The notes: generated from the letters alone by a model not told the origin. 64,000 nt of DNA from an uncultured Candidatus Saccharibacteria bacterium (GCA_964388235.1 CAYLXN010000001.1:15655-79654), one strand, 5' to 3'; shown: positions 1 through 40,559, counted from the stretch's first letter. Made by a program: numbers and translations.

Positions 1-734
1 ATCTCCTCTTCGTCGGAACCGCCTAAGCCAGCTTTAGTTAATTGATTAAAATTAGCATTAGTTTGCCAGACGCCGTCCGAAAAAGACAAGTAGCGACTAG
101 CGACTGCTCGATTTAAGGCCAGCATTAGATCTGGATCGCTTTGAGAAGCGGTCAATAATTTATCGCCAGACAAGTCGTCGTATTTTTTGTATTTAAATTT
201 AGTTAATCGATGATTATCGTCAGTTTCAACTTCAAAACCCTGATCTTTAAAGCTTTGTTTTAGTTTGTCGCTGACCGAGTAATAATCTTCGACGACTTGG
301 TATTTTGATGGTGGCGACTGAGCGTGATTGATTTTGTTTTGGACGGCAATTTTTGAGCGGTTATTAATACTTGGTTCTTGGTAATTGAGGTTGTCGACCA
401 GGGTCTGAGACCAGTGAACTATCAATAGCGGAAATGGCGCGAAGGCGGCGACTAGAAATAAAATTAAACCAACTATAGCAATAAAAGCCATCGCTGGTGA
501 TGATTTTTTAGCAATACTTATTCCCCTGCTGGAGCGGATATTTTGAGTAAAAGTAGTTTTTCTAGAAGTGGGATTGGGTGTTAATTCTTGTTTTCGGTAA
601 TTAACAGCCGAGGGAGCTGATTTTTTCTTGTTGTCAGTGCGTAGATTGGGGTTAAACTCTAAATTAGCCAATCTATTTTTGGTAGATTTTAATTTTGGCG
701 CTTGATTCTTATCCTGATCATCATCCCTGTTCAT
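1..734 (-). CDS. Partial CDS (runs off left edge): hypothetical N-terminally membrane-anchored protein, downstream of the VirB6-like genes on the same strand
   Basis: Hand translation from ATG at 734-732 (minus) gives MNRDDDQDKNQAPKLK... It has one hydrophobic helix (AMAFIAIVGLILFLVAAFAPFPLLIV) followed by a soluble region. The frame stays open to position 1. It is absent from the ORF track because it is truncated. Confidence 0.5.
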   Translation of the reverse strand, partial: MNRDDDQDKNQAPKLKSTKNRLANLEFNPNLRTDNKKKSAPSAVNYRKQELTPNPTSRKTTFTQNIRSSRGISIAKKSSPAMAFIAIVGLILFLVAAFAPFPLLIVHWSQTLVDNLNYQEPSINNRSKIAVQNKINHAQSPPSKYQVVEDYYSVSDKLKQSFKDQGFEVETDDNHRLTKFKYKKYDDLSGDKLLTASQSDPDLMLALNRAVASRYLSFSDGVWQTNANFNQLTKAGLGGSDEEE

Positions 735-792: not shown

Positions 793-3700
793 TTAGCTAA
801 AATCATCAATTCGATCAAGGACGTATTTTTTGCCATCAGGCATAGTGGTCGTTGAGCGAACTCTGGCTTCGACTTGATTACGGAAAGTTGGATTGGTTCT
901 CAGTAAGTCTTCAAATTGCTGCTGTTCAATTCGCATATTTTTCTGCTTGTAAAGTAGATCAGCTCTTTTTTCAGCTGACAGGCTGGAGCCAGCCAAGTCA
1001 CGACTGATTTTTCTCAGTTCTCCATTGTAATCTTTTTGCTTAGCGTATGAAGGCTTAACTTGATAAGTTGGCAAACCAGAGAAGTATTCTCTGACAGCTT
1101 GCTCTTTTTGAGAATCTTGAGAGGTATCAGTAGGATCGCTAGTCCAAGTAAAGCCACCTGGATCTTTGCCTGCCTCAAGGTAATTGCCTTTGTTGCCTTG
1201 GTGATTTAATTTATACATGATCATCGCCGCTTCAGTGTGGCTACCCTCGGCTGATAATTTTCTAGCTACTTCCAAGGCGAAATTATTGATAAACTCTTGA
1301 CTGTAACCATTCTTTTCAGCGATTTGCAGACTGATAGTTAACTGCTGCTCGGTCAGAGCTCCTCCGTCAGCGGCAGTCAAGGCATTTTCCAAGATGGTTC
1401 TAACTTCAGTTGGATTAACGTGATTAATAATTGATTCACTAGATTTATTGCTAGTTGGAGTAATATTCGAAATCACAAAATTTTTGGCGTAATCTTTGTC
1501 GATTCTTTCGCTTTGTTCGGAAATTTCAGACATATCTTTTTTGACAGATTCAGTGTCAGGTAAATTAGCTAGGCTAGGTATTCTTGAAACAACTTCTTTT
1601 TCGGTTCGACCAGTAACTCCACTAATGCCAGTTTTAATTTTACCTCTGACATTTTCGACATTTTTCCTTCGTTGCTGGTAATCAGCTTGCTGTATCGATT
1701 GGCCGAGATCGGATCTTTTGAAACTGCTAGCGGCTTTGTCGCCAAGTTTGCCAAGGTTTCTAATTGAGCCACTGACCAGCGGCATTTTGCTAATTAGCTG
1801 GATGATTAATTTAGGAGCGATTAATAAAGGAATGAAAGCAAAAGAGATTGAAATTAATTTTCTGAAGCCGCTGGCTTTAGTTGACCAAGTTATTTTGTAA
1901 GCTAAATCACCGAAACCGAATAAGAAGGCGATAATTGGGTAGATTGCTAACATGGTGATGAATAACTTCAGCCATCGGCTAGATAAGTTTTTAGTGTTCG
2001 GTAATGCCATCAGGGCGATCGCTAGTGGTGATAGGAAGATGAGAATTACAATCGCGATGTGTCGGGCGGCAATGGCGGCTAAAGCAGCAACTGCGGTTAC
2101 TAGAGCTCCAATTAGTAATGGTAAGACTAGACTTAGGGCACCGAAAAAGCTAGCCGCCACGGTGACAGCCACTGCCCCGCCAGCTAATATAAAGAATTTT
2201 CCCTTGAGTGCTAGGTCAACAATATCGGCCAGTGGAGACTTTGAAGCAAAAGCTTCGTCGGCTAAATTGCTGAACATTATACTGATGTTGTCGCCAATAA
2301 TATTAGCAATATTAACCGCTAATGAGCATAAGAAAAATGAGATGTTGATCAAAATAGCGGTGATGATGAATTGCGGAATTATTTGCGATAGTCGCTGTTG
2401 TGAACCTATTGACGCCATTTGCATGACAATCAGGATTAAGCCGATGATTATCAATAGGCTGTTGGCGTAAGTGCGACTGATCATCCAGGCTTGGTTTAGA
2501 GAACTATCTGGCTCGAGCGCATCTTCGGGAAAAGCTAAAGCTAGTCGCAAAAGAGAGAAGGTTTTGTCGGCCGTTTTGCCAGCGAAACGAGTTAGAGGAC
2601 AGGTAACCATGGCATGGAAACCAGTTTGAGCACAAGCCGATTCGGCATCTTCAAGCTCCTCTTCTAATTTTTTGCGCATCTCTTCGTAATCCATGTCGTT
2701 TGAATATCGACTATCGGGTAGGTCTTTATAATAGCCTGCCGCATCTTTTTCGTTTTCAGTCATACACAACCAATCGGGATTGTTGTTTTTGTAATGGTCG
2801 TAGAGTTTTTGGACAGCGTCAATATCAGTCATTTGTTGGACTAAACGAGTTAATGACGAGCAATCCATCGGTTGGAGCCAAGCACCAGTTACTTGAATAG
2901 CTTCAATTTCACATTTACTATCAAACATGTCTAGGCAATTTTGCTTGAGTTCTTCAGTTAAAGATTCATTTCCTCCCTCATGTAGTACTTTCTTACAAAC
3001 TTCATCACGCCCAGATTCTTTAAGGCAGTCGTTCTTTATATCATCAGTAGTTATAGTTTGTTTTTGTTGCTGATCTTGGTTGAAAAAATTCAATCGTGGG
3101 TAGCCCTTTGATTCTTTCAGGCCGTTAGTGTTGCAGTCCCTAAAGCCACTATCTATTGCGGTGATGAATGAATCGTCTACTGCTTGATTAGGGAAACTAA
3201 AATCGGCACTGTCGTAGCGATTGAAGTAAAGGAAAGGTAAATCTTCATGAAAAACTGAGTCTTCTGGGGTTGGATTTGTGTGAGAATTGAAGCGTTCTTT
3301 AAAATATTTTAGGGTTGATGTTATTGGTGTTATGTTACTTACAACCGCCCACCGACTTTTTAGGTTTGTTTGATATTTAGCTAACTGTTTTTCATAGTCT
3401 TTTACTAATTTATCGTGTTCTTTTTTTACATCCTCAGTTATATTGGTTGGGATTGATTTTGGGTCGAAATCGGTGAATTTTAACAGATCTACGGCGCCTT
3501 TATCGATAGAAGCGTTTAAGCCCATCATGTAATTTAGTCGTTGCCATTCTTCATAAGTTACGTCTTGACATGGTTGATTGTCTTTGTTGAAGTTTGGATC
3601 TTTACCGTCGGTGCAATTTTCCATTTTATCTAAAATTCGATTGGCAGTGACGACTATTTCTCGGACAATATCTTCACAAGGGTCGGATTCAGTGGGGGTA

Positions 3701-3885
3701 GCTTGGGAAGGGTTTTGACTAGTGTTGCTACTTGTAGTGGTTGATGGTTGACTGCCAGAAGCGTAAGAATTTAGTGAAATGCCATAAAAATAGACAATCG
3801 TTAAGGCTAGTAAGATAGTGCCAATTGCTAAAAAATTAAGTGACTTGTTTTTAATAATTAGAGTAGATGGTTGTTTCTTAGGCAT
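793..3885 (-). CDS. VirB6/TrbL-like polytopic membrane protein, paralog 1 of 5 (1030 aa)
   Basis: It has an N-terminal anchor helix, an S/T-rich linker and a Cys-containing ectodomain. A multi-helix hydrophobic core follows (CAQTGFHAMVTCP..., IIPQFIITAILINISFF, NIIGDN, LALPNTKNL, AIYPIIA) that shares motifs with the four upstream paralogs. It ends in a roughly 330-aa non-hydrophobic tail. The family call is by topology and motif, not by search. Confidence 0.55.
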   Translation of the reverse strand: MPKKQPSTLIIKNKSLNFLAIGTILLALTIVYFYGISLNSYASGSQPSTTTSSNTSQNPSQATPTESDPCEDIVREIVVTANRILDKMENCTDGKDPNFNKDNQPCQDVTYEEWQRLNYMMGLNASIDKGAVDLLKFTDFDPKSIPTNITEDVKKEHDKLVKDYEKQLAKYQTNLKSRWAVVSNITPITSTLKYFKERFNSHTNPTPEDSVFHEDLPFLYFNRYDSADFSFPNQAVDDSFITAIDSGFRDCNTNGLKESKGYPRLNFFNQDQQQKQTITTDDIKNDCLKESGRDEVCKKVLHEGGNESLTEELKQNCLDMFDSKCEIEAIQVTGAWLQPMDCSSLTRLVQQMTDIDAVQKLYDHYKNNNPDWLCMTENEKDAAGYYKDLPDSRYSNDMDYEEMRKKLEEELEDAESACAQTGFHAMVTCPLTRFAGKTADKTFSLLRLALAFPEDALEPDSSLNQAWMISRTYANSLLIIIGLILIVMQMASIGSQQRLSQIIPQFIITAILINISFFLCSLAVNIANIIGDNISIMFSNLADEAFASKSPLADIVDLALKGKFFILAGGAVAVTVAASFFGALSLVLPLLIGALVTAVAALAAIAARHIAIVILIFLSPLAIALMALPNTKNLSSRWLKLFITMLAIYPIIAFLFGFGDLAYKITWSTKASGFRKLISISFAFIPLLIAPKLIIQLISKMPLVSGSIRNLGKLGDKAASSFKRSDLGQSIQQADYQQRRKNVENVRGKIKTGISGVTGRTEKEVVSRIPSLANLPDTESVKKDMSEISEQSERIDKDYAKNFVISNITPTSNKSSESIINHVNPTEVRTILENALTAADGGALTEQQLTISLQIAEKNGYSQEFINNFALEVARKLSAEGSHTEAAMIMYKLNHQGNKGNYLEAGKDPGGFTWTSDPTDTSQDSQKEQAVREYFSGLPTYQVKPSYAKQKDYNGELRKISRDLAGSSLSAEKRADLLYKQKNMRIEQQQFEDLLRTNPTFRNQVEARVRSTTTMPDGKKYVLDRIDDFS

Positions 3886-3891
3886 AGTGAA

Positions 3892-5910
3892 CTAGAGCGG
3901 ATGACCAGAATTAGTTAGGGCGCTATTGTAATTGTTGGCTGAAGCAATATTCATACCAGCGTTGTTTCGAGAATCACGGATTAATTGTGCTAGCTGGTTG
4001 TTGCCTCGTAAGTTTTGCTCAAGAGCTTGTCGATCAAGTCCGTTTGCAAAGGCAAAACCAGAAGTGCCAGCTATTTCAGTTGAGCTCTTTTGGCTGATAA
4101 TCCTACCGACATTATTAGCATATTGAGCGTCAGTGATGGAATTAAAGCTAGCGCCAGTTTCACGGCGAATATTAGCCATGGCTTCGAGGTCGTAGCGTCC
4201 ATTTTGTCGGGCCGATTCAATTACATTTTCATTTATTCTATCTATTTGATCAGCCGACATGCCATCTTTTTCTAATTTAGCCATTAATTCTCGATATTTT
4301 TCGCCGCCAAAATACTGGTTATCCTTGCGAGCGAAATTAACAGCGGCTGAGCCAACGCCAGCCCTGTCGGTTATTCTGCCGTCTTTGTCGATCATGCCGT
4401 TAGTTCTTAGCATAGCTAGATCCATTTCATTCATATTATTAGTGTCAATATTACGGTTATTGGTGTAGGCGTCTAGTAATTCTTGAGAGCCATTCATACT
4501 TAAGGCGCTGCTAACTTGGTCGGCGCGACTATTAAGCGTGTCTCGAGCTTCCTGAGCTTTGAGAATTGATCCAGAGAATCGTCTGGTTCTTTTGCCCAGT
4601 TTATTCATGACTTTGCCAGCTGGGTTTTTAGTTTCTAATTGGCCTAAAGTAGCTTTTGCGTTACGAACTTCGGCTTTCCTCTTTGAGATTCGGGCTGGAG
4701 CTGATCTGTCAGCTAAACTCTTAGCGCCACTAATGGCTTTATCACCCATGCTTCGCAGTTTTCCACCAATCATTGGCATGGCGGCCATTGAATTTTTAAT
4801 CAAAGTAGGCGCATAAATAATCGGTAAAACTTGAACTGCTTTAGCCATCAATAATAGTAATACACTACCTCCAGCAACAGCAGTAATTGTACTGCTAGCA
4901 AAACTTGATCCGCCAAATAAAGCCGCCACTACGGGGTAAGTCATCAGTGATGTTGACAAGAATTTTGACCAAAGCCGATAAAATGATTCGGTGTTGGGTA
5001 AGACGTTACTAACGAAAGCAATTGGCGAAATAGCGATCACGATAATTACAATGATGTCGCGAAGTGCTAGTAAAGCAATTACGACAATGATCGTCATGGC
5101 GATGCCGGCTAAAAGAACTAATCCGATAGCTAAAAGTGGCAATTTAAAAGAAGCGTAACTGGCGGCACTTACGGCGGTAGCCACACCAGCTGTTCCCACT
5201 GCAGCGCCCAATAAAATTTGACCGAAGATAGAGGTGATATCTTCGCCTTGATTTGGCGCTTGAAAAGCGGCGGCTGAGGCGGTTTTGAATAAACCATAGA
5301 GATTACTACCAATAATATTACTAATTTCAACTAAAGCAATAGTGATGTAATACGAGACATTAACCAAGAAAATAGCTACTAAAAATCTTGGTAATAAGCG
5401 CTTGGTATTATAGGCTGAGATGAAATTGCCAGTCATGTAGGAAATTAGTAAGATTAAGGCGAAAACGACAAATAGGCCATTAGCAATACCTCGAAACACT
5501 GACCAGATACTCTTCACGCCAGCGTCACTGACGAAGGCTTCGTCAATACTCATAAATGACATTGCATTTCCAGCTACGGTTTCTTCAAGTAGAGTAAATA
5601 AATAGTCGGTTGCTGAGGCCGCAGCTTCAGCGACAGGACATAAAATATTAGCGAGGATGTTATCAACTTTACAGTGTGAAAAGCCATTGTCGGTGGTCTG
5701 TGGTGGTTGTGTAGGAGTATTAGTTGTGTTATTGGTAGTGTTACTGGTTTGGGCTTGAACTGATGGGCTAAAAAATAAGCAATTTGAAAATATGACCGTC
5801 AGCAACAAACCGATGGAGAATAATTTAACTATTTTTTGCCCCGAAAACATCTTATAATGATTATGCTTGAAAAAAATAGATTTTGCAATTGTTTGTTTAA
5901 AATCCATCAA
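3892..5910 (-). CDS. VirB6/TrbL-like polytopic membrane protein, paralog 2 of 5 (672 aa, shortest ectodomain)
   Basis: It has a signal/anchor helix, a T/N-rich linker, and HCKVDNILANILCP just before the core. Core motifs are WSVFRGIANGLF, LLISYMTGN, LPRFLV, NVSYY, NIIGSN, LPNTESF and TYPVVA. The tail is about 280 aa. There is a 6-nt gap to paralog 1. Confidence 0.55.
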   Translation of the reverse strand: MMDFKQTIAKSIFFKHNHYKMFSGQKIVKLFSIGLLLTVIFSNCLFFSPSVQAQTSNTTNNTTNTPTQPPQTTDNGFSHCKVDNILANILCPVAEAAASATDYLFTLLEETVAGNAMSFMSIDEAFVSDAGVKSIWSVFRGIANGLFVVFALILLISYMTGNFISAYNTKRLLPRFLVAIFLVNVSYYITIALVEISNIIGSNLYGLFKTASAAAFQAPNQGEDITSIFGQILLGAAVGTAGVATAVSAASYASFKLPLLAIGLVLLAGIAMTIIVVIALLALRDIIVIIVIAISPIAFVSNVLPNTESFYRLWSKFLSTSLMTYPVVAALFGGSSFASSTITAVAGGSVLLLLMAKAVQVLPIIYAPTLIKNSMAAMPMIGGKLRSMGDKAISGAKSLADRSAPARISKRKAEVRNAKATLGQLETKNPAGKVMNKLGKRTRRFSGSILKAQEARDTLNSRADQVSSALSMNGSQELLDAYTNNRNIDTNNMNEMDLAMLRTNGMIDKDGRITDRAGVGSAAVNFARKDNQYFGGEKYRELMAKLEKDGMSADQIDRINENVIESARQNGRYDLEAMANIRRETGASFNSITDAQYANNVGRIISQKSSTEIAGTSGFAFANGLDRQALEQNLRGNNQLAQLIRDSRNNAGMNIASANNYNSALTNSGHPL

Positions 5911-8575
5911 TAATTCTCCTCGTGTTCATATCAAGACTGTTTTTATGAAAATCGATTGTCGATTTTAATTCGGGTGAACTGTTGTATAGCTCTCTTATAG
6001 CATCATGCCCGACGGGGTTTTCGATCGGGTCAATTGAACTGGTTTGCAGGCGAAGGTTGAAGGTATTTGGTTTGTTTTGGTCTTGAACGATTGGTTTAGT
6101 TAGGAATTCGCGTTGGAGGTTTTTCTTGTAAATTTGATCATAACGAGCCGCTTCGCTAGTGTTGGTGCGAATTGGTCGCCCCTTGCTAAAATCGCCATTG
6201 TTAAACTCTAAATTGGTTTTTATCGAGGCAATAGTATTGATATTGGTGGTGTTGTCAAGATTGTCGAGCATGTTACCGACGATAATATTCAGATCGGTAG
6301 CTGAGGCTCCTTGCTGGCTAGTCGTGGCGAGTACTAAATCAATTGTTTCGTCATCTTGAGTGGTTAATTGACGTGATTCTTTTTTGGCGGCGGCAACTAG
6401 ACCAGCTATTGTTGCTAGCTTCAGGCTAGTGTTGTCGGCGGTGTTGTGCTTGAACTGATTATAGACCGCTCGTTGATTGTCATTTAAGGTATTAATCGAT
6501 GAATCGCCAGCAGCAACTCTTGAGACTTGCTGCATGTCGTGGAAGCTGACACCTTCAGCCATTTTCTCGTAGTCTTTAGCTAGTTTTTGCTGAGCGTTGT
6601 ACGCTTGATTGGCCACACCTTTTGATACACGTCTCAAGGCGCTTTGAGCTCGACCAGTAACAGCAGCTGAAGGACTAGTTAACCAGTGGCTAAATTTATT
6701 ACCATACTCCCCTGTAACGGCTTTTTCGGCAGCTTTTTCGCGTTTTTGCTTGCGGGCGCGATGAAAGGCAGATTTTTCGTACTGTTTCTTGCCAAATCTA
6801 GACGCCATACTACTTGCCATGCCAATAAAACCACCAGCAACAGCCACTTTGCCGAGTGATTTAAAGATAACTATAGGCGTAATTAACATCGGAATAATTA
6901 ACGCTGACCACGGAATAAGAACTGAGAATACTTTCATCATATCAGCACCCGAAAGGATGTTGCCACTTAATATCGAATAGGCTAATAATCCACCACCAGA
7001 AAATAAAGCCACGGTCGGGTAAATCATTAGGCAAGCGATGAAAGCGTTAAACCACATACTGAAATATTTTTTAGTATTTGGTAAAGCATAAAGAGCAAAA
7101 GCTACTGGCGCTAAGGGTAATAAGACGATCAAAAGCGCATTACGGGCGGTTAGTAAAATCATCGTAATTGCAAAGGCAATAATCCATAATACTGCAACGA
7201 TAATTAATAATAGGATGAAAATTAACAATAAGAAAGCATCACCCCAACCGTAACTAGCTCGTAAATTACCACTGATATCAAAGTTGGCGCTGTTTGTCAC
7301 CCAGTCTGACCATTGAACTAATAAACTAAAAATCGACTCGCCGAAGATGTTTGACAAGTCAACAATTGCTTTAGCAAAGTAGGCTGAGGCATTGACTAAC
7401 AAGGCGGCAATTAGCCATTTGGGCAAAGTTTGCTTGATAGTGTAATTTGACAAACCAATACCACTTCCGATATAGTCGCCTGCTAAGTAGGAAATAAGCA
7501 TGATTATAGCTGCTACCACCAAGATTGAATTAGCGGTTACTTGGAAGATTCGCCAACTGTTAGTTAGTGCTGGTTGGTTAAAAACTGAGTCATCGTTTCT
7601 TAAAAACGGTTCGAGAATGTCGAAACTACTAGTTGATGCGTCAGCAAGTAACTCCCCTAGCCTGCAAAATAACCAGCTCATGCCACCAGCGGCGTAGCAA
7701 TATTTAACACCGTTATCAGCCTTGTCTTGGTCTAATTTGGCGCCAGCTTGACTGGCATCTAGTGCATCAAGGGCGTCTCTTAATTCTTTTTCTTTATTAA
7801 TGTAATTTTCGATCATAGTTTTGGTATCTAAATCAGGTGTAGGCCAGTTGGGTGTTAAGCCAGCGCTAATGGTGTTGCTATAGAGATGTTGTAAGATAGT
7901 CGGGCTAAGTCGACCAGCACCAAAGAGTGACTGACCGTCTTGATCAATGACCGCTAAACATTTTTCCCGGCTAAATTTAGGGTCTTTTCGATTACAAATC
8001 GCGATGATGTCGTTGGTGACTTGGTTTGAGTCAGGGGTGTTCGTTGATAAAGTCGCACCCTTGCCGTTGTCGGTACAAATTTTATTAGCTGGTTTGCCTG
8101 CAGGGTTAGATGAACCAGTGTCTCTTCCTTCAGCAATACTAGGGGTAGCAATCTCTAATGATGAATAATAAGTACAGTAAAAAACTTTTTTGTTTACTGT
8201 TTGATTATTGCCAGAGTTTTCTACAGTACCAGTTGTTTTAATTGGATTACCATCTTTGTCGTAGACATCATCCCACCTTATTGAGGCTCTACCTACACCA
8301 CCCGATCCAGATTCGGTTTTTTGATCTGGATTAAAGCTACCATTAACATTTAAGCTGACAAAAAAGTTAAGCATTCGTCGATCGTTGGCAGATAACGGAT
8401 CTTCTCCAGTCGCGGCGTTGCTGATTAATTTCATTTTTAAATACTCACTAGTGATCATGATTTCGTCATAATCAAGTATTTGGGCGTTAGCCGAAGCGCT
8501 ATTTAGTGAAAATAGTAAACTAAAAACGACAAACAGTAGAATTGGCATTTTTCTAGTTTTAAAATTAAAAATCAT
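5897..8575 (-). CDS. VirB6/TrbL-like polytopic membrane protein, paralog 3 of 5 (892 aa)
   Basis: It has a signal peptide and an ectodomain of about 290 aa. Core motifs are YCYAAGGMSWLFCR, WRIFQVTANS, MLISYLAG, LPKWLI, NASAY, NIFGES, ALPNTKKY and IYPTVA. A long tail follows. It overlaps paralog 2 by 14 nt. Confidence 0.55.
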   Translation of the reverse strand: MIFNFKTRKMPILLFVVFSLLFSLNSASANAQILDYDEIMITSEYLKMKLISNAATGEDPLSANDRRMLNFFVSLNVNGSFNPDQKTESGSGGVGRASIRWDDVYDKDGNPIKTTGTVENSGNNQTVNKKVFYCTYYSSLEIATPSIAEGRDTGSSNPAGKPANKICTDNGKGATLSTNTPDSNQVTNDIIAICNRKDPKFSREKCLAVIDQDGQSLFGAGRLSPTILQHLYSNTISAGLTPNWPTPDLDTKTMIENYINKEKELRDALDALDASQAGAKLDQDKADNGVKYCYAAGGMSWLFCRLGELLADASTSSFDILEPFLRNDDSVFNQPALTNSWRIFQVTANSILVVAAIIMLISYLAGDYIGSGIGLSNYTIKQTLPKWLIAALLVNASAYFAKAIVDLSNIFGESIFSLLVQWSDWVTNSANFDISGNLRASYGWGDAFLLLIFILLLIIVAVLWIIAFAITMILLTARNALLIVLLPLAPVAFALYALPNTKKYFSMWFNAFIACLMIYPTVALFSGGGLLAYSILSGNILSGADMMKVFSVLIPWSALIIPMLITPIVIFKSLGKVAVAGGFIGMASSMASRFGKKQYEKSAFHRARKQKREKAAEKAVTGEYGNKFSHWLTSPSAAVTGRAQSALRRVSKGVANQAYNAQQKLAKDYEKMAEGVSFHDMQQVSRVAAGDSSINTLNDNQRAVYNQFKHNTADNTSLKLATIAGLVAAAKKESRQLTTQDDETIDLVLATTSQQGASATDLNIIVGNMLDNLDNTTNINTIASIKTNLEFNNGDFSKGRPIRTNTSEAARYDQIYKKNLQREFLTKPIVQDQNKPNTFNLRLQTSSIDPIENPVGHDAIRELYNSSPELKSTIDFHKNSLDMNTRRIIDGF

Positions 8576-11500
8576 AGAACTATCCTGTCAGGTGTGATGC
8601 CGTTAGCAACAATAACTTCTCGAGTGTCATCTGGATTAAACTGGGTAATACCAAGACTAGTAAAGGCTTCATTGACTGAACCAAAAGCAGTGTTATTGCC
8701 CAAAGCTTTGGAGTAAGCATTCATGGAATCGAGAAGAGTTTGATTGATGGCGTTTTTCTCATTGTTTGTCAATAAATCGTGGCCATGAGCCGAGGCAAAA
8801 AATGGTTGCTCTTCGAGTGGCAGCAAAGTGCCGGTAACTGGGTCGACAGCTGGCGGTTGTTTAATTTCGTTTTTTATGGTCGTAAAGCTGGTACCGTTAT
8901 GGGTGTGCATGTGGTGCTGGCTTTTGTAGAGTAGTTTGGCGGCTTCCAAAATAGATTCATCTAAATTAGCGATAACGACAGGATCAAGGTGGTCATAGCT
9001 TTTCAGGACATCATAAAGATTAGTCTGTCTAATCCTTTGCGGATCTTCAGGTAAATCTCTGATCATACTTTTGACGATATCGGTTGTTGAGGTGGCGATA
9101 TCACTGCCAGACGAATATAATTCTGCGGCTAATTTTTCCTTGGCTGTTCTCAGGTCTTGCTGATTATTAGCCGCTGGTCCGCGTTGCAAATATTGATTTG
9201 AGTTGATACTCAATATGCCGAAACCTTTAGCTGCATCTTTGGCTTTGGCGTTTAATATGTTTTGATCAATTTTAATATCTTTAACCAGTAGCGGTTTGAA
9301 ATTATAACCATCATTGTCAGCTAGTGACCAATCATTATCCTGTATATTTTTCTTTTTGGCGGTGGCTTTTTTAATAACCTCCATGAAGCTATTTTCTTGA
9401 GTAATATCACCAATCGTGTTTTGATCGAAGAAAAGGATTTTTAGGTCAGGATGAGAATCGTCTGACGGGTCGATAACAAATTCTTTATCGCCGTTGGCCA
9501 ACCGTTCTTGGTTGATGTATTTGGAGATAAGAGCCATTTTTTTCTGATCAAGGTTTTGAAGAGACGCTAGGCCTTTGCGTATTTGAATCATGTTATTATT
9601 CTGAGTATTAGTTATGGCATTCACTCCTCCGTTACCAATTCCAACATTGATGGTAGTTGCGGTTAAGACATTAACTAATGAATTTACATCCATATCGTTA
9701 TAGCCAGTACTTAGTTTAGTTAAACGACTTTTTAGATCGGCCGTCGCTTGATTGATAATGCTATTTTTCTCACTATCAGTTAGTGACATGGTATTGGAGC
9801 CCGTTAGGACGTCATTTCTTATCTGTTGGATAGCTTCGTTTTCGATGGCAGAGAAATCGAGTTTGGTGTTTGAATTATTGTTGAAATTGTTAATTACCTC
9901 TCTAGAAATAACTTGATCAATATTTAAAGTCACGGTTTTATCTGGACCAACTGAGTAAGCTTGACTTGAGCCAATACTGGAGCGTATAGCTTGAACGTTT
10001 TTGGGTGGCGTGTAAGCTTCATAACCAATAATCGATTCAATGATAGCTACTTGCTGAACTTGACCATTTTTTAGCGCGGTAATACGAGCTTTTTTGAGTT
10101 CATTTTCAATTACACTCAAATCTGCGCCCTGCTCGTAAGCTTTTTTGTAGACATCAATGTAAAATTGTGGGTTGCTGACGCCATTTATAATAGCGGCATT
10201 AGCTGCCGAGAATTGGAAAATTTGAGAATTTTTGCCGTATCGAGCGGTAATAGCGTCGTAAACTGCTCGGTCTTCGGTGTTTAAGCCTTCGCTTGATCCC
10301 ATATGAATAGCTCGGATCAAAGCTGGACTGTGTTTGATCGAATCGGTGATATCATTAGCCATTTTGCTTTGAGTATAATTAACTTTGTTGGTGCTTTTGG
10401 CAACAATACCGCCAGTCAAGCGATTAAAATAGCTATTTCGGCCGAGTTTAGACATTATTCGACCAGATTTTTTTGATAAATTAGCTTTCAAGCCATCGCC
10501 AGGTACGGCTCCGTAGAGAAACTGCTTGTTTTTTAGAGATTGTTGATCTCTGATAGCTTGAGAAGCTGGTAGGTTTTTGCCAAAATTCCAACCAGCACCA
10601 GTTAATTTCTCAAAAGATTGGCTGAGTTTTGCGCCAGCTATTGGCACACCTCTCATTAATTCAATGATGATTTTCGGCACCAGTAGTATTGACAAGGCAG
10701 GTAAAGCAAAGGCTGCTAATTGAAATAAAATATTACCCGAGGCGTTAGTTAAGATTTTAGAAGTTAATTTACTGAGACTTAAAATCAAGACAGTTATTGG
10801 ATAAACACTGACGCAAGCTATAAACATTTTTAGCCATTTATTAAAGACATTGTCAAGATTTGGGATTGACATTGTGGCGATAGCGAGAGGTGCTAAAATT
10901 ACCAAGAGGATGATGGCGGCATAGCGAAATGATAATAGGAAAACGGCAAAAGTTAAGCCGATAAACACAGCTGGTAAGATTACCAATAGAAAGAATAATC
11001 CACCTAGTAAGATTACACTGCCAGCAACTGCGGCGACAGTTAAGATACTACCGGTTACGATGGCAGCTATTTTTAACTGAGGACCAGGGATGGCTTTAGT
11101 CACGCCATCAATTAACCCACCGATGTTATCACCCAAAATATCAGCCACAGTTATGATCAATCGGCTGAGATATAGAGAAATGGTTACCAATAGGACGCTA
11201 ATTAACAGCTTGGGCAGCATGATTTTGATCTGGTAATTTGATAGGCCGTTGTTGGTAATATATGAAATCAACAACACCAAGAAGCCAATGACGATAATCG
11301 AAAAGGCAATGTTGCGCACTACTCCCCAGATTGATTCGACTCTCTGATCAATAATATTTGGATTGACAGAAATTAGGCTGTCGAGTAAGCTAGATGATTT
11401 ATCGGCCGCCGAAACAGAGGTGGTGGCTAGCGGGCAGACGATCCATTTGGCAGTAATAAGATCAGTATCAAGAGCTGCACAAATATCACCGCCATTGTTG

Positions 11501-12813
11501 GGTTCAGAGATGGAATTGGCGACACAGTTATTAGCAAATACCTTACAATCAACTCGTTTTTTAGTGTTGGTAGTGTGGGTTTCTTCGCACATTTTCAAGA
11601 TCGCATTTGGAGCTCGGGAGTTGATATCTTTTTCTTCCTCGTTTTCGCTGTATTGAGGATTGTAATTGATTTGATTGGATTTATCCAAGAAGCGAGCATC
11701 AATAGCGCTACAGTCCTCGCTAGTGGCCAAGTCAGCCATTATTTCTGAGAGTGATTTATCACATTCTTTTTCGAGGGCGTCAATTAATTTTTCATTTTGG
11801 CAATCTTTGCTGCAATATTCTGGCAGGGCTTGTTTGACGACTTCATTGTCGGTTTCGGGGCAATTGGAGCTACATAAATCCCTAATTTTAGTTACCTTGC
11901 CAGCTCGTACACCGCCAGCGCATTCGTTGGCTTCAAAATCTTGGCCAAGAAAAGAATTGACACCTCTAGCTACAGAAATCTTTTTTCCAATCATCGGAAT
12001 GAATATCTCATTGGCAGCGGCTTCTAGTGATTGAGCGTCATTGCAGTTTTTAAAAATAAATTGATTATCTTTGCCTGGATTTTTTGTATTAAAAAATCCT
12101 TCTAATACCCTAGAAAAAGGAGCCGCATTTTTACATGGATTGTGTTTGCTTCCATCGCCGCTATGCATGATAACTTGTTTGGTGCCTCCATTATATATTG
12201 ATTGGCAAATTAAATTGGGATCATTTGGGTCTTGACGAGTTGAGGCTAAGATTTTACCACTGCCTGATACTGGGTCGATATCTACAATCAGCCCAAACTT
12301 GTCAGCTGCAGTGATGTTCTTGGTTTGTGAGGTTTTATTGGCTTCTGTATAGAGCGCTTGCAAAAAATCTGACGTATAATATTCGCCAACTGATAAATTA
12401 GCGTTAGCTTTAGTGAAAGTAACCGAACCCTCTTGAGCGTCGTATATTGCCCCGCTAGCATTGGTTTCACTGAGTTTCTTGGCAATCTCTTTCCAAATAC
12501 CACCTTTCATGACAATTTGACCGTTTTCGTAAGTGGCGGTTGTCGAGGTGATCACTTCACAGTTTGGGTCACCACCACTAGCGGGTTTGCAGTAGCAAGG
12601 CTCACCTGAGTCAGCACACCAAAAACTACCCGCCCGACAATTGCCATCGGCACTGGCTTTGGTTTTGTCTTTAAAACTAATCGTCCCTCCAGAACTGACT
12701 GAACTTTGGGCCAGAGCGTGATTAGTGGAGACACCACTAATGTAAGTTAAACCTAAGCAAAAAATCGCCAGCAAACCGATTATTTTGGCTAAACTCCACC
12801 TATTCGTAGACAT
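8572..12813 (-). CDS. VirB6/TrbL-like polytopic membrane protein, paralog 4 of 5 (1413 aa, Cys-rich ectodomain, about 700-aa tail)
   Basis: It has a signal peptide and an ectodomain of about 470 aa with roughly twenty Cys by my count. Core motifs are CAALDTDLITAKWIVCP, WGVVRNIAFS, LLISYITNN, LPKLLI, ILGDN, SIPNLDN and VYPITV. It overlaps paralog 3 with a 4-nt ATGA overlap. A TATAAT at 12826-12821 (minus) lies 7 nt before its ATG. Confidence 0.55.
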   Translation of the reverse strand: MSTNRWSLAKIIGLLAIFCLGLTYISGVSTNHALAQSSVSSGGTISFKDKTKASADGNCRAGSFWCADSGEPCYCKPASGGDPNCEVITSTTATYENGQIVMKGGIWKEIAKKLSETNASGAIYDAQEGSVTFTKANANLSVGEYYTSDFLQALYTEANKTSQTKNITAADKFGLIVDIDPVSGSGKILASTRQDPNDPNLICQSIYNGGTKQVIMHSGDGSKHNPCKNAAPFSRVLEGFFNTKNPGKDNQFIFKNCNDAQSLEAAANEIFIPMIGKKISVARGVNSFLGQDFEANECAGGVRAGKVTKIRDLCSSNCPETDNEVVKQALPEYCSKDCQNEKLIDALEKECDKSLSEIMADLATSEDCSAIDARFLDKSNQINYNPQYSENEEEKDINSRAPNAILKMCEETHTTNTKKRVDCKVFANNCVANSISEPNNGGDICAALDTDLITAKWIVCPLATTSVSAADKSSSLLDSLISVNPNIIDQRVESIWGVVRNIAFSIIVIGFLVLLISYITNNGLSNYQIKIMLPKLLISVLLVTISLYLSRLIITVADILGDNIGGLIDGVTKAIPGPQLKIAAIVTGSILTVAAVAGSVILLGGLFFLLVILPAVFIGLTFAVFLLSFRYAAIILLVILAPLAIATMSIPNLDNVFNKWLKMFIACVSVYPITVLILSLSKLTSKILTNASGNILFQLAAFALPALSILLVPKIIIELMRGVPIAGAKLSQSFEKLTGAGWNFGKNLPASQAIRDQQSLKNKQFLYGAVPGDGLKANLSKKSGRIMSKLGRNSYFNRLTGGIVAKSTNKVNYTQSKMANDITDSIKHSPALIRAIHMGSSEGLNTEDRAVYDAITARYGKNSQIFQFSAANAAIINGVSNPQFYIDVYKKAYEQGADLSVIENELKKARITALKNGQVQQVAIIESIIGYEAYTPPKNVQAIRSSIGSSQAYSVGPDKTVTLNIDQVISREVINNFNNNSNTKLDFSAIENEAIQQIRNDVLTGSNTMSLTDSEKNSIINQATADLKSRLTKLSTGYNDMDVNSLVNVLTATTINVGIGNGGVNAITNTQNNNMIQIRKGLASLQNLDQKKMALISKYINQERLANGDKEFVIDPSDDSHPDLKILFFDQNTIGDITQENSFMEVIKKATAKKKNIQDNDWSLADNDGYNFKPLLVKDIKIDQNILNAKAKDAAKGFGILSINSNQYLQRGPAANNQQDLRTAKEKLAAELYSSGSDIATSTTDIVKSMIRDLPEDPQRIRQTNLYDVLKSYDHLDPVVIANLDESILEAAKLLYKSQHHMHTHNGTSFTTIKNEIKQPPAVDPVTGTLLPLEEQPFFASAHGHDLLTNNEKNAINQTLLDSMNAYSKALGNNTAFGSVNEAFTSLGITQFNPDDTREVIVANGITPDRIVL

Positions 12814-12880
12814 AAGCTTTATTATACACGAAAAGCCAAAAATGATTAAGCAAGTTTAAATGATTATACGGGTGGAGAGA

Positions 12881-15580
12881 TTAATTATTTAGAAAATTAT
12901 CCAAGCCGTTTTTTAGTTCTTCAAGCTGAGCCCTAGCTGCTGGCTTGAGGGTTTTAGCCAATTCTTCGGAATTTAATACACTGTTGGCGTTGTCTAGAGT
13001 GCGCCGCATCATATCTCTTGATTCTGGTTTGGTTTTTAAGGCGGCTAAATAATCACCAACCGTTGTTGTAATGGTTTGATTGCCGTCTTTGTATTTAAAA
13101 CTATAGCTTGGGTCTTTAAAAACTGAAGCATATTTTTCCAAACCTTTTGGATCTTCTTTTGATAATCCATCAATTGACAACGACCCTTTGGACATATTGT
13201 CCAAAGCCGCTTTGACGAGTAAATCAGGATCGAATTTACCGTGAGCGATCTGCTCAGGTATGTTTCCGCCATAAACAGAAACCTTATCTGGAATACCATT
13301 AGGATACATACTAGAGCCAACTACTTCGGCCAGAACATGAGCGCTGCCGCCTTCTTTAGTGGCAGCAATAATCTTATCTACATTGGGGGCAAAGGCTATT
13401 TTCATTTGGTTAATAGCGGCTGTTTCTCTAACTAATAAATCATTAACATCAAAGGTTTTATGGGAAACCACCTTATTACCGTTGGCATCATAATCAACAT
13501 GAGAAGCGGTGATAGATCTGTTACCTAAAATTAAGTCCATCTCATCTTCACCTTTTAGGCCATAATGTTCAAACAATTTAGCCATATTTTCAACATTTTC
13601 AGAGTGTTCTTTGCGTTGAGCTGCAATGGCTTTCGATAGAACTCGGTTTTTACCAGCGGTAGTGCCTCTCTCAACACCGGCTGCATCCATCAAGAAGGTC
13701 GTTCTAGGAGCAACACCAAAACTAACTGGCACTTCCATATCCTTGGCTAGTAAGTCATTATAGGTTTGGGCTTTGACTGATTCAGCCACACTAGTGGCGC
13801 TTTCATCGAGTCTTCGCTGTAGGCTGGCTTTGGCGATTTCAACTTCCCAGTTATTATCCAAACTAGACCAATTAACTTCGAATTTCTTAGTGGCTTCATT
13901 ATAGGTAGGTTTCACCTTTCGCAAGGTTTCAGCGCGCAATTCTTGCTCTTTGCGCTCAAGGTGCTGTTTTGAAGCTTCGAGTGAATCGTTGGCGTAGGTA
14001 TTTAATAAACTAGTTTTAAAGGCACGATCGTTGACATTAGCCATGTCTTTTTTAATCTGGGCTTCTCTTATATTGCCGTAAGCTTCGGTTCGTTGAGTGC
14101 TCAGACGTTTTTGCTTGTCAGCAAATTGAGCAATCTTTTGAGTGAAGCCGCGGGCTCGATTTTCATCCGAAATATAGCGAGCCTTGGCTTCGTCCTTCTT
14201 TGAATCAGAGTAATTTTTGACTTGATTTTGGAAGCGATCCAGAAAACCTTTGGATTTATCGTTAACCAAGCCAACTAGTCGATCGCCCGCTTTGACTAAC
14301 ACAGGAGCAACAATCAGTGGCGCTACCCGAACCAATAAGCCTAAAATAACCATCGGAAAACCATCGGCTGTGTGAATAATTACATCGCCAGCTAGTTGTG
14401 AGGCGCCAAATAACAGTGAAAATAAAGGAAACACGGCTAACATATTGATAAATGTTTGGCGCCATTTATCAAATAAATCCTCAGTATTTGGTAAAAGCAT
14501 AGCTACACAAGCGATTGGGGCGATCGCCACTAAAGCTATGATGATCGCTTGTCGGGCTGCCAGGGTAATGATAGCCACAATGACCGCGATAGTGGCGCCA
14601 ACCAAGCTTGGTAATACTAAAAAGAATGATGCAACTACCCCACCCGCTGAGGCAATGGCGAAATTAATACCTGCGATAGCGGTGGCTCCAGACAAGATGG
14701 CGGCAGTGAGGTCTTTCCAATTAAGATCAGCGCTACTTTGACTGCCACTCAACGATTGAACCCGGATATTTTCAAAAAAATCATAAGTATTGTAGCCAAT
14801 GATATTAAAAACATCGATAGTTAATGAGCAGAGATAATAAGACAAATTAACCAAAGCCGCAGCTACAATTAACTTTGGTAGAAGTTTTTTGACTTCATAA
14901 ACCGAAAAGGCGTTGTTGGTCATATAAGAATAAATCAACAGTAAGCCAGCCACTACAAATAGTGAATTGGCAATGCCTCGCATGATGCCCCAAACTTTAA
15001 ACAAAACGGTATTGTTTCCAGTTGGTAATGGTTGAATTTCGACGAACTTGACCACCACATCAAATAGATAATCCATACCTTCGGCTAAGAAGTTACTAAT
15101 TGGACATACCAGCCAGCCAAGAGTTGGGATGTTGCAGGTTTTGGCATAGTCTGATTTGTTTTCATAAGGAGTTAAGTTTTGAGTATTTGAGGGGTTGGTC
15201 GGCCTACCGGTTTGTGGGTCAAGCTTGTAGGTTTGATAATTATAAGCGGTTGAATTTTTTGGATCTTGTTCATCGCTAGGAGCGATCGCTTCCATAGTGC
15301 CATTGTTTTCGTAAGACCAGTACTTTGTACCAGGAGCAAAACTCGTGCCGTCATCTCGGGCTGAAGTTTTCGGTCCAGAAAAGGTTTTGCCCTGATATTC
15401 GATCGAATCGCCCTGCCACTTAATGTCACTCGCTTCGATTGCTAAAGAATTATGATTCAGATAGAACAGATTAAATAAGGTCGCAACAAAAACAATTGCG
15501 ACTCCAATTATAAGTGACCTAATTCTAGTTGAATTAGGAAGCGGTAATTTTGCCTCCAACATACCATGCAATAATATCAT
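12881..15580 (-). CDS. VirB6/TrbL-like polytopic membrane protein, paralog 5 of 5 (899 aa), first gene of the operon
   Basis: It has an anchor helix and an ectodomain of about 130 aa. Core motifs are TCNIPTLGWLVCP, WGIMRGIANSLF, LLIYSYMTNN, LPKLIV, NLSYY, NIIGYN, LLPNTEDL and VFPLFS. The tail is about 430 aa and predicted coiled/charged. The true start may be the Met 6 codons downstream (15562). Confidence 0.55.
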   Translation of the reverse strand: MILLHGMLEAKLPLPNSTRIRSLIIGVAIVFVATLFNLFYLNHNSLAIEASDIKWQGDSIEYQGKTFSGPKTSARDDGTSFAPGTKYWSYENNGTMEAIAPSDEQDPKNSTAYNYQTYKLDPQTGRPTNPSNTQNLTPYENKSDYAKTCNIPTLGWLVCPISNFLAEGMDYLFDVVVKFVEIQPLPTGNNTVLFKVWGIMRGIANSLFVVAGLLLIYSYMTNNAFSVYEVKKLLPKLIVAAALVNLSYYLCSLTIDVFNIIGYNTYDFFENIRVQSLSGSQSSADLNWKDLTAAILSGATAIAGINFAIASAGGVVASFFLVLPSLVGATIAVIVAIITLAARQAIIIALVAIAPIACVAMLLPNTEDLFDKWRQTFINMLAVFPLFSLLFGASQLAGDVIIHTADGFPMVILGLLVRVAPLIVAPVLVKAGDRLVGLVNDKSKGFLDRFQNQVKNYSDSKKDEAKARYISDENRARGFTQKIAQFADKQKRLSTQRTEAYGNIREAQIKKDMANVNDRAFKTSLLNTYANDSLEASKQHLERKEQELRAETLRKVKPTYNEATKKFEVNWSSLDNNWEVEIAKASLQRRLDESATSVAESVKAQTYNDLLAKDMEVPVSFGVAPRTTFLMDAAGVERGTTAGKNRVLSKAIAAQRKEHSENVENMAKLFEHYGLKGEDEMDLILGNRSITASHVDYDANGNKVVSHKTFDVNDLLVRETAAINQMKIAFAPNVDKIIAATKEGGSAHVLAEVVGSSMYPNGIPDKVSVYGGNIPEQIAHGKFDPDLLVKAALDNMSKGSLSIDGLSKEDPKGLEKYASVFKDPSYSFKYKDGNQTITTTVGDYLAALKTKPESRDMMRRTLDNANSVLNSEELAKTLKPAARAQLEELKNGLDNFLNN

Positions 15581-15661
15581 CTACTAGGATAAAAGTCAAT
15601 CAATATAACCCTAATTTGCTAAAAGTAAAAGTTTATGTTTATAATTTAACAATTTAAAATC

Positions 15662-15690
15662 TTGCAAGCTGGTTAATAATTAGTTATAAT
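15662..15690 (+). promoter_or_regulatory. Sigma70-type promoter for the pilin-like array (TTGCAA-17 nt-TATAAT)
   Basis: TTGCAA at 15662-15667, a 17-nt spacer, and TATAAT at 15685-15690. The ATG at 15701 lies 10 nt downstream with no obvious SD. It sits in the 120-bp divergent intergenic region. Confidence 0.5.
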
Positions 15691-15700
15691 CAAATCAATT

Positions 15701-16219
15701 ATGAAGAAAATTTCAACAAAAAAAATAAAAAAAGCCACTAAAATATTTGTAGTCAGTGCGTTTAGTTTTGGGTTATTAATATTATCAGTAGCAAACACCT
15801 CTTCTGTGATTGCGAACAATCAATACTATCCTGGAGCTAGTGTAAATAATCCTGGTAGTTCTAGCTCATCCGGAGGAGCTCCAGGCTCAACAGGTACCGG
15901 TACTGGAAATAGCAGCAACAACAGTAGCAATAGTAATAGCGGCGGCAGCGGCTCAACTGGGATTGATCAATGTAAGGGTCGAACTGATGGTAGCGGCATT
16001 AACTGTTTAGTCGAATTAGTAGTTAATATTTTAAGTATGGCGGTTGGCGGCGTGGCGCTGCTGATGATGGTTGTGGGGGCTGTAATGTATGCTTCGGCTG
16101 GTGATGATTCTGGTCGAGTGGCGGCTGCAAAAGGAATTATTACTAAAACTGTCATCGGAGTAATCGTTTATGTCTTTTTGTACGCAATTCTCAACTTTGT
16201 TATTCCAGGTGGTATTTAG
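15701..16219 (+). CDS. T4SS pilin-like (VirB2/TrbC-type topology) protein 1, with long S/G/N-rich linker
   Basis: 172 aa with a signal peptide and a low-complexity stretch (GSSSSSGGAPGSTGTGTGNSSNNSSNSNSGGSGSTG). One Cys (C91, in QCKGR) follows the linker and a second (C102) lies in the NCLVELVV helix start. Then come two hydrophobic helices flanking an ASAGDDSGRVAAAKG loop, the same layout as the downstream paralogs. Confidence 0.55.
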   Translation: MKKISTKKIKKATKIFVVSAFSFGLLILSVANTSSVIANNQYYPGASVNNPGSSSSSGGAPGSTGTGTGNSSNNSSNSNSGGSGSTGIDQCKGRTDGSGINCLVELVVNILSMAVGGVALLMMVVGAVMYASAGDDSGRVAAAKGIITKTVIGVIVYVFLYAILNFVIPGGI

Positions 16220-19723: not shown

Positions 19724-19726
19724 TTT

Positions 19727-38378: not shown

Positions 38379-38468
38379 GTTTAGATTATTTTAACAAACT
38401 GAAGCTAAAAAGAAAAATTATTAAAACAGCCCGCTGTAGAACGGGCTGTTTGTTGTTTGAAAATAAAC

Positions 38469-40133: not shown

Positions 40134-40559
40134 ATGAAATTTATGACAAAAAACATATTTGCTAGTCTGGGACTGATTGTTGGCATGATGCTATCGTCTT
40201 TTGGCGGTGCTAATGTTTTGGCTTTGCCGCAAGCAATTGACGGGGGAGTGCCAGCAGGAGTTGAGGCAGCGCGAGGTGCTAATCAACCAAGTGAATTATT
40301 TGGTGATCAAGGTATTTTTCAGCGAATTACTAATATTTTGCTGTTTCTGATTGGCGTTTTGAGTGTGATTATGCTGATTGTTGGTGGCTTACGCTACGTC
40401 TTGTCGGGTGGCAATCAACAGGCAGTTGGGGCCGCTAAAAACACTATCCTCTATGCCATCGCTGGTTTAATTATCGCTATTTTGTCTTACGCCATCATAA
40501 ACTTCGTAATGACAACCTTTACTGGCGGCGCTGGTTACTCGGGTGGTATTGACGCATAA
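40134..40559 (+). CDS. T4SS pilin-like protein 6 (satellite copy)
   Basis: 141 aa with a signal peptide and the module LLFLIGVLSVIMLIVGGLRYVLSGGNQQAVGAAKNTILYAIAGLIIAILSYAIINFVM. Upstream are TGCTATAAT and an AAAGGA SD. Confidence 0.6.
   Translation: MKFMTKNIFASLGLIVGMMLSSFGGANVLALPQAIDGGVPAGVEAARGANQPSELFGDQGIFQRITNILLFLIGVLSVIMLIVGGLRYVLSGGNQQAVGAAKNTILYAIAGLIIAILSYAIINFVMTTFTGGAGYSGGIDA

Follow-up and report, generated by a model that had tools for sequence, protein, structure and literature searches.

Five consecutive extended VirB6/TrbL-like proteins in a probable type IV secretion locus of Candidatus Saccharibacteria

Introduction

The platform in plasmid R388's type IV secretion system (T4SS) is a pentamer of VirB6, on which VirB2 pilins are assembled and through which the substrate passes. 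We ask here what five large membrane proteins, encoded one after the other in DNA of an uncultured Candidatus Saccharibacteria bacterium, have to do with such a platform. The stretch analysed (GCA_964388235.1, CAYLXN010000001.1:15655-79654; 64,000 nucleotides, called the window throughout, with positions counted from its first letter) carries the five genes at 793-15580, and an original prediction, made from the sequence alone, had read them as tandem, enlarged and mutually divergent VirB6/TrbL-like proteins. VirB6 subunits are conserved in Gram-negative and Gram-positive T4SSs (PMC12857230), and in R388 VirB6 and VirB5 form the stalk base (PDB 7o3v/8rt9 entry titles; PMC12857230). The role of the extensions of 'extended VirB6' proteins is stated as an open question in a 2025 review of T4SSs (PMC12857230).

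That Saccharibacteria widely possess a T4SS region, in which VirB4 and VirB6 are accompanied by an array of small secreted proteins, was reported in 2020 (PMC7427843). Southlakia epibionticum cannot grow as an epibiont without its cluster SEML1_0006-0019, and two large proteins, SEML1_0013 ('TrbL/VirB6') and SEML1_0011 ('Type IV secretion system protein'), are encoded there beside six pilins, PrgI and VirB4 (PMC10633639). A phylum-wide survey counted 480 VirB6 homologues and recorded arrays of between 2 and 11 pilin genes; its wording is 'the detected virB6 gene', it makes no mention of VirB6 arrays, and it proposes that the T4SS of Patescibacteria has a monoderm conjugation-type ancestry (PMC12102498). 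TM7x has two neighbouring virB6 genes that show opposite expression changes in the transcriptome, initial encounter being compared with stable symbiosis (10.1101/2022.03.25.485537). In the literature pairing Patescibacteria with VirB6 a multi-copy VirB6 array is not described. The analysis below indicates that the five genes probably encode extended VirB6/TrbL proteins of a chromosomal Saccharibacteria/Patescibacteria T4SS, and that this lineage has five copies where one or two are otherwise found.

Results

Five paralogs with a common core and private flanks

The five open reading frames (ORFs), named A to E in operon order, are consecutive on the minus strand and have the coordinates and sizes (in amino acids, aa) that were originally given.

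12881..15580, minus strand: paralog A, VirB6/TrbL-like, of the mainstream type, adjoining the pilin array; 899 aa, core aa 140-432
8572..12813, minus strand: paralog B; 1413 aa, ectodomain of ~400 aa with 20 Cys, core aa 445-720, Cys-free tail of 693 aa
5897..8575, minus strand: paralog C; 892 aa, core aa 287-590
3892..5910, minus strand: paralog D, the shortest; 672 aa, only a Thr/Asn/Gln/Pro-rich linker before core aa 74-372
793..3885, minus strand: paralog E; 1030 aa, ectodomain of ~370 aa with 12 Cys, core aa 412-698, tail of 332 aa

The genes are tightly packed, as predicted: B and C overlap by 4 nt, C and D by 14 nt, and 6 nt separate D from E; the gap between A and B is 67 nt. The starts of both A and D are probably called too long. 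The called start of D is a TTG with an ATG one codon in, and from this ATG at 5907, which is the start in an identical database protein (P0001), D has 671 aa and overlaps C by 11 nt. The true start of A is probably M7 (15562), because the alignment with its ortholog begins there. A promoter-like -10 box overlaps the first annotated codons of A (15562-15580).

Pairwise BLASTP gives significant matches for all ten pairs of A-E (E 1.7e-40 to 4.4e-25, 26-32% identity), and these are limited to the polytopic hydrophobic core of ~300 aa and ~100 aa following it. A MAFFT alignment of the five cores has 19 invariant columns. When the ectodomains alone and the tails alone were compared among A-E, no match was better than E 0.1, and searches of Pfam and NCBIfam found no family similar to either ectodomains or tails. 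The five cores therefore align formally and only the core is homologous, as had been expected; A-E are paralogs that have one common core and private flanks.

Each protein follows the three-part plan first described for it: an N-terminal hydrophobic helix and an ectodomain of ~30-400 aa, then 6-7 hydrophobic segments, then a tail of 300-693 aa. The 6-7 segments lie beyond the signal helix in every paralog, which makes the core a polytopic membrane domain (at least five transmembrane segments), and long hydrophobic helices make up the modelled E core, which is helical throughout (pLDDT, the predicted local distance difference test, 72.4). AxA-like signal-peptidase motifs (ALA-Q, ANA-Q, VQA-Q) follow the N-terminal helix. 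Most of the sequence motifs proposed for the core are present, LPNT/IPNL and [IVT][YF]P being found in all five paralogs; C has C-R instead of C-P at the cysteine pair, and E lacks W..R..AN and LLISY. The spacing within this pair, originally given as x8-12, is x9 in A and x10 in C, D and E but x14 in B. With the conserved core-edge Cys pair included, the N-domains of A-E contain 2, 20, 6, 2 and 12 Cys, the tails none, and the 60 residues after the last hydrophobic segment have a net charge of +5 to +11. An exported N-domain with disulfide bonds and a cytoplasmic tail are what such signals would lead one to expect.

Similarity of the core to VirB6/TrbL

The cores very probably represent a distant, enlarged branch of the VirB6/TrbL superfamily. 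Pfam TrbL (PF04610) is the best or only match in four of the five ORFs, sub-threshold in each [13.6-21.4 bits against a gathering score of 25.9; E values: A 0.0085, B 0.0015, C 2.3e-4, E 0.058], and paralog D has no PF04610 match. Precomputed database labels assign TrbL_3 (PF19590) to C, D (P0001) and four copies of a related genome described below; our own Pfam scan gave no PF19590 match. The word-index protein search returned three proteins for D and none for the five-core profile. An exhaustive HMMER search with that profile against 1.84 billion representative proteins identified 20,706 clusters with E <= 1e-3, of which 5,856 had E <= 1e-30; nearly all of the 150 top-scoring clusters have 850-1150 aa, and 24 diverse cores were drawn from this search (alignment A4). 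Eleven of these 24 cores match Pfam TrbL at E < 0.01 (best 8.6e-7).

Searching 177,635 PDB sequences, the A4 profile has one match, TrwI (the VirB6 of plasmid R388; E 0.043), and the five-sequence core profile has none. Alignment of A4 with four IncW/IncN VirB6 sequences (taken from plasmid records by tblastn) using hhalign gave E 4.5e-5 and a probability of 69% over 105 columns. The Trp of the motif P-N-T-x3-[FS]-x2-W is present without exception in A-E and in the 24 family cores. Its counterpart in TrwI, by hmmsearch as well as by hhalign, is the Trp of PTHRFFDQW, the Trp that is described as invariant and essential in VirB6 (PMC2653234).

The AlphaFold2 (AF2) model of the E core, calculated from a 24-sequence alignment (pLDDT 72.4; predicted template modelling score, pTM, 0.62), was compared with 350,542 PDB chains using Foldseek. 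Ranks 1-5 are all TrwI (probability 0.84-0.99) and the next match has a probability of 0.11; the TrwI matches (E 0.034-0.16, TM(target) 0.31-0.46, 260-283 aligned columns) are below the usual same-fold cut-offs. A full-length AF2 model of D, poor in quality (pLDDT 58.9, pTM 0.35), has the same five TrwI chains on top, a weak result. Scattered weak matches to NCBIfam models, all of them conjugal-transfer membrane proteins of monoderms, are far below cut-off [CD3337_EF1877, E 5e-4 to 1.5e-3 (A 0.0015); MMCAP2_0566, 8e-5; Mbov_0396, 2e-3], and each was seen in only one family member. Profile and structure similarity thus point solely to VirB6/TrbL, each score being modest, and support the assignment made in the original prediction.

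Pilins, hydrolases and the position of the ATPase

The window takes in the proximal half of the probable T4SS locus, where the VirB6 array has the divergent pilin genes on one side and the beginning of a gene for a VanY hydrolase (a peptidoglycan peptidase) on the other.

15701-16219, 16219-16887, 16891-17250, 17319-17687 and 17759-18163, plus strand: five divergent VirB2-like T4SS pilin genes (PF18895)
15581..15700, no strand: intergenic region of 120 bp from which the VirB6 and pilin arrays diverge, presumed bidirectional promoter region
3..734, minus strand: VanY ortholog, 5' part (244 codons), the next operon gene, running off the window start

VirB2-like pilins had been noted next to the array, and all five pilin ORFs, directly upstream of A, score above the gathering score of Pfam T4SS_pilin PF18895 (E 2e-6 to 1.3e-14). 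Promoter-like hexamer pairs occur on both strands around the intergenic region (15599->15571, 15629->15602, 15616-15645, 15662-15690); they are consensus matches only, and their count is not above shuffles. Promoter and terminator scans of the array itself likewise gave counts not above shuffles, with no internal signal above chance.

The closest genome is that of an uncultured Candidatus Saccharibacteria bacterium (contig CAZPHO010000003.1, loci L003 and L008), which agrees with the original description of the genome as like those of the candidate phyla radiation. In this relative the five genes recur in unchanged order (998, 1448, 861, 669 and 1002 aa), and after them come VanY, a protein with Phage_lysozyme2/C39 matches, three small genes, PrgI (the VirB3 analogue; E 1e-11), a TrsD-like gene (254 aa, weak TraC_F_IV match) and a VirB4-type ATPase (P-loop_TraG 6e-23, AAA_10 1e-11, DUF87) that sits ~8.3 kb past the last VirB6 gene. 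The VanY fragment of the window is 58.6% identical to the VanY of L003 (939 aa) over 227 aa (E 2e-80; phmmer E 5e-80). A T4SS cluster with VirB4 is thus assigned to the window through orthology with this relative, the window itself ending inside the VanY ortholog, and by synteny the VirB4 gene of the window genome most likely lies ~8 kb beyond the window start. As originally noted, there is no VirB4, VirD4, relaxase or integrase in the window (phmmer; Pfam scans of the larger ORFs), and phmmer searches for VirB4, the TrsD-like protein and PrgI have no match anywhere in the 64 kb. The conclusion once drawn from this, that the rest of the machine is 'elsewhere or non-canonical', is probably not right; by synteny the machine would continue immediately beyond window position 1.

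The relative's contig was the only match in a profile scan of genome contigs with an alignment of E and its ortholog; the same scan with E alone did not find it. Exact look-up of E returned no record and a word-index search with the VanY fragment found none, whilst exact look-up of D returned two short Logan contigs, both ending inside E.

The locus is chromosomal; the rest of the window consists of housekeeping genes, and its other 48 kb encode GroEL, Mur ligase, TsaD, FemAB, ValRS, ArgRS, DnaG, RpoD, PolA, Fpg and six tRNAs. A PF18895 array beside the machinery and a chromosomal location with neither relaxase nor coupling protein, two features typical of the T4SS of Patescibacteria, are both found; a further one, the presence of PrgI/VirB3-like, TrsD-like and VirB4 genes, is seen in the orthologous locus L008. 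We are fairly confident that the locus is a member of the Saccharibacteria/Patescibacteria chromosomal T4SSs, of monoderm type and related to MPF-FATA (mating-pair formation class FATA). A mobile element was also considered and is ruled out by the lack of relaxase and integrase, the housekeeping flanks and the even GC content.

Copy number across metagenomic loci

To place the five copies we fetched 80 metagenomic loci that include a family member together with as much as 10 kb of flank in either direction, and scanned their ORFs with the core hidden Markov model (HMM) and with pilin, PrgI, TrsD-like, VirB4, VanY and lysozyme sequences. The 80 loci are the best matches to a mainstream family member and sample the lineages unevenly. 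Their canonical layout has about six pilins on one strand and, on the other, a VirB6 gene, often a gap of 1-2 kb, a second VirB6 gene and then, wherever enough flank is available, genes for PrgI, the TrsD-like protein and VirB4; loci with still longer flanks go on to VanY and lysozyme. The divergent arrangement of pilin array and VirB6 is seen in the T4SS-context loci whose upstream flank is covered. In each T4SS locus among the 80 the number of VirB6-like genes is exactly two (what looks like a third copy in one of them is a neighbouring split ORF), and none of the 80 has more than two.

Eleven of the 80 loci hold a single orphan VirB6-like gene that has neither pilin nor PrgI nor VirB4, nor any T4SS gene, less than 10 kb away, so that the family is not confined to T4SS loci. 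The orphan genes (L026, L031, L033, L034, L037, L041, L042, L046, L053, L070 and L072) encode proteins of ~880-1120 aa that are A-like.

Five-copy arrays were found only in the window, in the two short Logan contigs, which are of the same organism, and in the relative. When the 150 top clusters of the exhaustive search are considered, B-E are matched over their full length by proteins of the window genome and the relative alone; all the others resemble A, and in the core only. The machine itself is already known, since Saccharibacteria T4SSs with VirB6 genes and pilin arrays have been published, and the only new element here is that one lineage has expanded its VirB6 paralogs from one or two to five.

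History and maintenance of the paralogs

Each paralog has a full-length 1:1 ortholog in the relative (identity: A 52.7%, B 40.9%, C 50.9%, D 49.6%, E 41.8%), and orthologs are thus 41-53% identical, against 24-34% for paralogs, where only the core is compared. The ortholog pairs have neighbour-joining (NJ) bootstrap values of 97-100%. Because of these full-length 1:1 orthologs the expansion must be old relative to the split of the two genomes, with all five genes maintained as folded, distinct proteins. Identity between orthologs is 58-69% in the core, 39-52% in the tail and 37-56% in the ectodomain, and the ectodomain Cys are kept (19/21 in B, 12/12 in E and 6/6). By these comparisons all five appear to be kept under purifying selection over their whole length. 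Pseudogenes or decaying duplicates were considered and are ruled out: all five genes are intact, their orthologs are full-length and their cysteines are conserved.

Paralog A scores 369 bits on an HMM of the pilin-proximal copies and 304 bits on an HMM of the second copies, and is placed by its sequence inside the mainstream clade. B-E reach 165-231 bits, equally poor on the two canonical subtype HMMs. They form long branches that group at 72% NJ bootstrap, a grouping that could be long-branch attraction. An attempt to assign B-E to either canonical subtype failed, as the HMM scores are equal and the positional labels are inconsistent across loci in the NJ tree.

Other features of the window

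A sixth pilin paralog is unlinked to the array.

40134..40559, plus strand: sixth pilin paralog, 141 aa, ~22 kb from the array (phmmer E 2e-10 to 1e-32 against the array pilins)

Canonical metagenomic loci likewise have one pilin more than those of the array, encoded on the other strand a few kb away. A second very large VanY protein (59053-62613, plus strand, 1186 aa, with VanY at residues 1072-1182) matches the T4SS-linked VanY of the relative with E 1e-103 and is thus paralogous to the hydrolase whose gene is cut by the window start. Four ORFs have no Pfam match at E <= 1e-5: 26813-29986 (minus, 1057 aa), 36560-38263 (minus, 567 aa), 40632-42071 (plus, 479 aa) and 56229-58364 (plus, 711 aa). 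Beside the 1057-aa ORF, a 182-aa ORF (29993-30541, minus) is weakly like the small protein s3 of the relative's T4SS locus (E 7e-4). The tRNA genes lie at 19634-19802, 38290-38903, 39673-39765 and 42304-42393; four of the six are tRNA-Ser (tga, cga, gct, gga), the remaining two are tRNA-Ala and tRNA-Arg, and Rfam confirmed five of the six.

Discussion

How might five VirB6-like proteins work in one machine? A-E would be co-expressed from one operon and each exported with a Sec signal peptide, leaving the Cys-rich or linker-like N-domain outside the membrane, in or beyond the wall. The conserved helical cores would form a platform in the membrane that serves both for assembly of the VirB2-like pilins and for passage of the substrate, and the Cys-free, basic, helical tail, in the cytoplasm, may dock VirB4, the TrsD-like protein or substrates. 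The diversified ectodomains could supply wall-spanning or host-contact parts that are otherwise lacking in monoderm systems. The paralogs most likely co-assemble into one heteromeric platform; this arrangement is ranked first because of the tight translational coupling, the fixed gene order and the retention of all copies. A stricter form of it, in which the five make up an obligate 1:1:1:1:1 heteropentamer that replaces the homopentameric VirB6 ring of the R388 type, we consider unlikely. Were it true, the result would be an asymmetric wall-spanning host-contact machine in which each position has its own extracellular domain and cytoplasmic tail; RvhB6 of Rickettsia would be an independent second instance, and both the number five in the two lineages and the retention in fixed order would be explained.

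Several observations weigh against reading A-E as the VirB6 proteins of such a machine. No single homology test reaches its conventional threshold, the hhalign probability being only 69% and covering the C-terminal third of the core, and the KEGG label of the ML1 homologs is K01992 (ABC-2 permease). VirB4, PrgI and the TrsD-like gene are read in related loci and not in the window, which ends before that region; 11 of the 80 metagenomic loci have an orphan gene away from any T4SS gene; and co-assembly, topology and the roles of ectodomains and tails are what we infer. The sub-threshold scores and the KEGG label would suit an unrelated polytopic family (e.g. an ABC-2-type permease) that merely neighbours T4SS genes. 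This we regard as highly improbable: five independent searches give VirB6/TrbL as top or sole answer and never an ABC-2 permease, the weak NCBIfam matches are all to monoderm conjugal-transfer membrane proteins, the place of the family in the T4SS locus is conserved across metagenomic T4SS loci, and no other VirB6 candidate was detected in those loci. The orphan genes speak for a different alternative, that A (possibly with one further copy) alone serves the T4SS and B-E have been recruited elsewhere, as adhesins, wall anchors or a transporter. The long branches of B-E, their 165-231 bits on both subtype HMMs against 369 for A, and the restriction of their full-length orthologs to the five-copy lineage (among the best 150 clusters from the 1.84-billion-protein library) are in keeping with such recruitment. 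B-E nevertheless stand inside the T4SS operon, between A and the hydrolase, PrgI and VirB4 genes as the two genomes together indicate, and they keep the invariant residues of the family, the VirB6 Trp included; the orphan copies, moreover, are A-like and not of the B-E type. Ranked third, recruitment of B-E seems to us quite unlikely.

The alternative ranked second supposes that the paralogs are not used together but in turn, by stage (encounter or stable attachment) or by host surface, perhaps each with particular pilins, which would give host-range or surface variation of the kind proposed for pilin arrays. Orthologs differ most in their ectodomains (37-56% identity, where the core has 58-69%), and those of different paralogs are unrelated; the adjacent virB6 genes of TM7x shift in opposite directions (10.1101/2022.03.25.485537), and pilin arrays have been read in this way (PMC12102498). 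The close packing (4 nt and 11-14 nt of overlap, 6 nt between D and E) and the lack of any internal promoter or terminator signal above chance point instead to co-expression as one operon. The Cys, moreover, are kept in every Cys-rich ectodomain (19/21, 12/12, 6/6), which suggests conserved folds and not rapid diversification, and neither genome has lost any of the five genes or changed their order. We consider use as alternatives possible but doubtful, and prefer co-assembly of the five in one platform.

Why host-dependent bacteria multiply extended VirB6 proteins is an open question, for which the Rickettsiales, genetically hard to work with, have so far been the only well-known case. The array described here adds an independent second case of expansion to five copies, from a phylum of monoderm epibionts, one species of which depends on its T4SS and has lately become open to genetics. 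It offers a comparative handle, since five copies, core-only homology, and private ectodomains and tails are the features that recur, and it allows one to ask whether the number of paralogs tracks the five-fold symmetry of the VirB6 platform. That the Patescibacteria T4SS, described with 'a' VirB6 and normally having two paralogs, can carry five matters for annotation and for models of how the host is tapped.

Comparison with known systems

The closest known proteins are the pairs of Saccharibacteria (SEML1_0013/SEML1_0011; TM7x_00055/TM7x_00060 of N. lyticus), which belong to the same family, have ~900-1100 aa and contain a TrbL/VirB6-like core. Their T4SS has in common with the locus described here the divergent pilin array, PrgI, the TrsD-like protein, VirB4, peptidase and lysozyme, as well as the phylum and the chromosomal location. 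Here, however, there are five consecutive copies and not two, with no small gene between them, whereas in canonical loci a gene of 1-2 kb often separates the two VirB6 copies. The hydrolases (with three small genes) lie between the VirB6 array and PrgI in the five-copy lineage but after VirB4 in canonical loci, and among the best 150 clusters B-E have no full-length counterpart outside this lineage.

TrwI of R388 shares with A-E a polytopic helical core, a position in a T4SS operon beside pilins and the aligned PxT...F..W motif. Identity is ~15% and the TM-score 0.31-0.46, the profile alignment is confined to the last third of the core, and the proteins described here, which have a signal peptide, an ectodomain and a long tail, are 2-4 times larger than TrwI or VirB6 of A. 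tumefaciens, with their canonical 300-350 aa. TraG of F and SXT-type elements combines a VirB6-like membrane domain with a large extracytoplasmic domain, which is implicated in contact with the partner cell through mating-pair stabilisation and entry exclusion. The extension of TraG is C-terminal, so that its domain order is unlike that of A-E. The VirB6 analogues of monoderms (PrgH of pCF10, CD3337/EF1877, Mycoplasma ICE [integrative and conjugative element] membrane proteins) have the same conjugation-type ancestry that is proposed for the T4SS of Patescibacteria (PMC12102498), and the weak NCBIfam matches to the A-E family fall in this group; their systems have one copy and no VirB2-like pilins, unlike the locus described here.

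The five-copy expansion is unusual but not unprecedented. Rickettsia has five RvhB6 paralogs (1055, 674, 971, 886 and 1154 aa) that are homologous only in the TrbL domain, and Ehrlichia and Anaplasma have four VirB6 paralogs (PMC2653234), so that the parallel with Rickettsiales drawn in the original prediction is apt: five paralogs, 674-1154 aa, with TrbL-only homology. Common to both are the tandem, enlarged paralogs with unrelated flanks, a reduced genome and dependence on a host, and in both each paralog is conserved between genomes; RvhB6a-e are ~80% divergent in the TrbL domain, against 68-75% here. The extensions of A-E are an N-terminal ectodomain and a C-terminal tail, unlike those of RvhB6. 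The rvh system is a diderm MPF-T with VirB7-10 and a eukaryotic host, whereas the present one is monoderm, MPF-FATA-like and has a bacterial host; VirB7-10 are not among the components of the relative's and the metagenomic loci, in which the monoderm components PrgI and TrsD-like protein are present. The likeness to the RvhB6 array, which was compared by its published description, is therefore one of convergence and not of membership, because the paralogs nest within the Patescibacteria family, B-E group together (72%), and envelope type and accessory genes differ.

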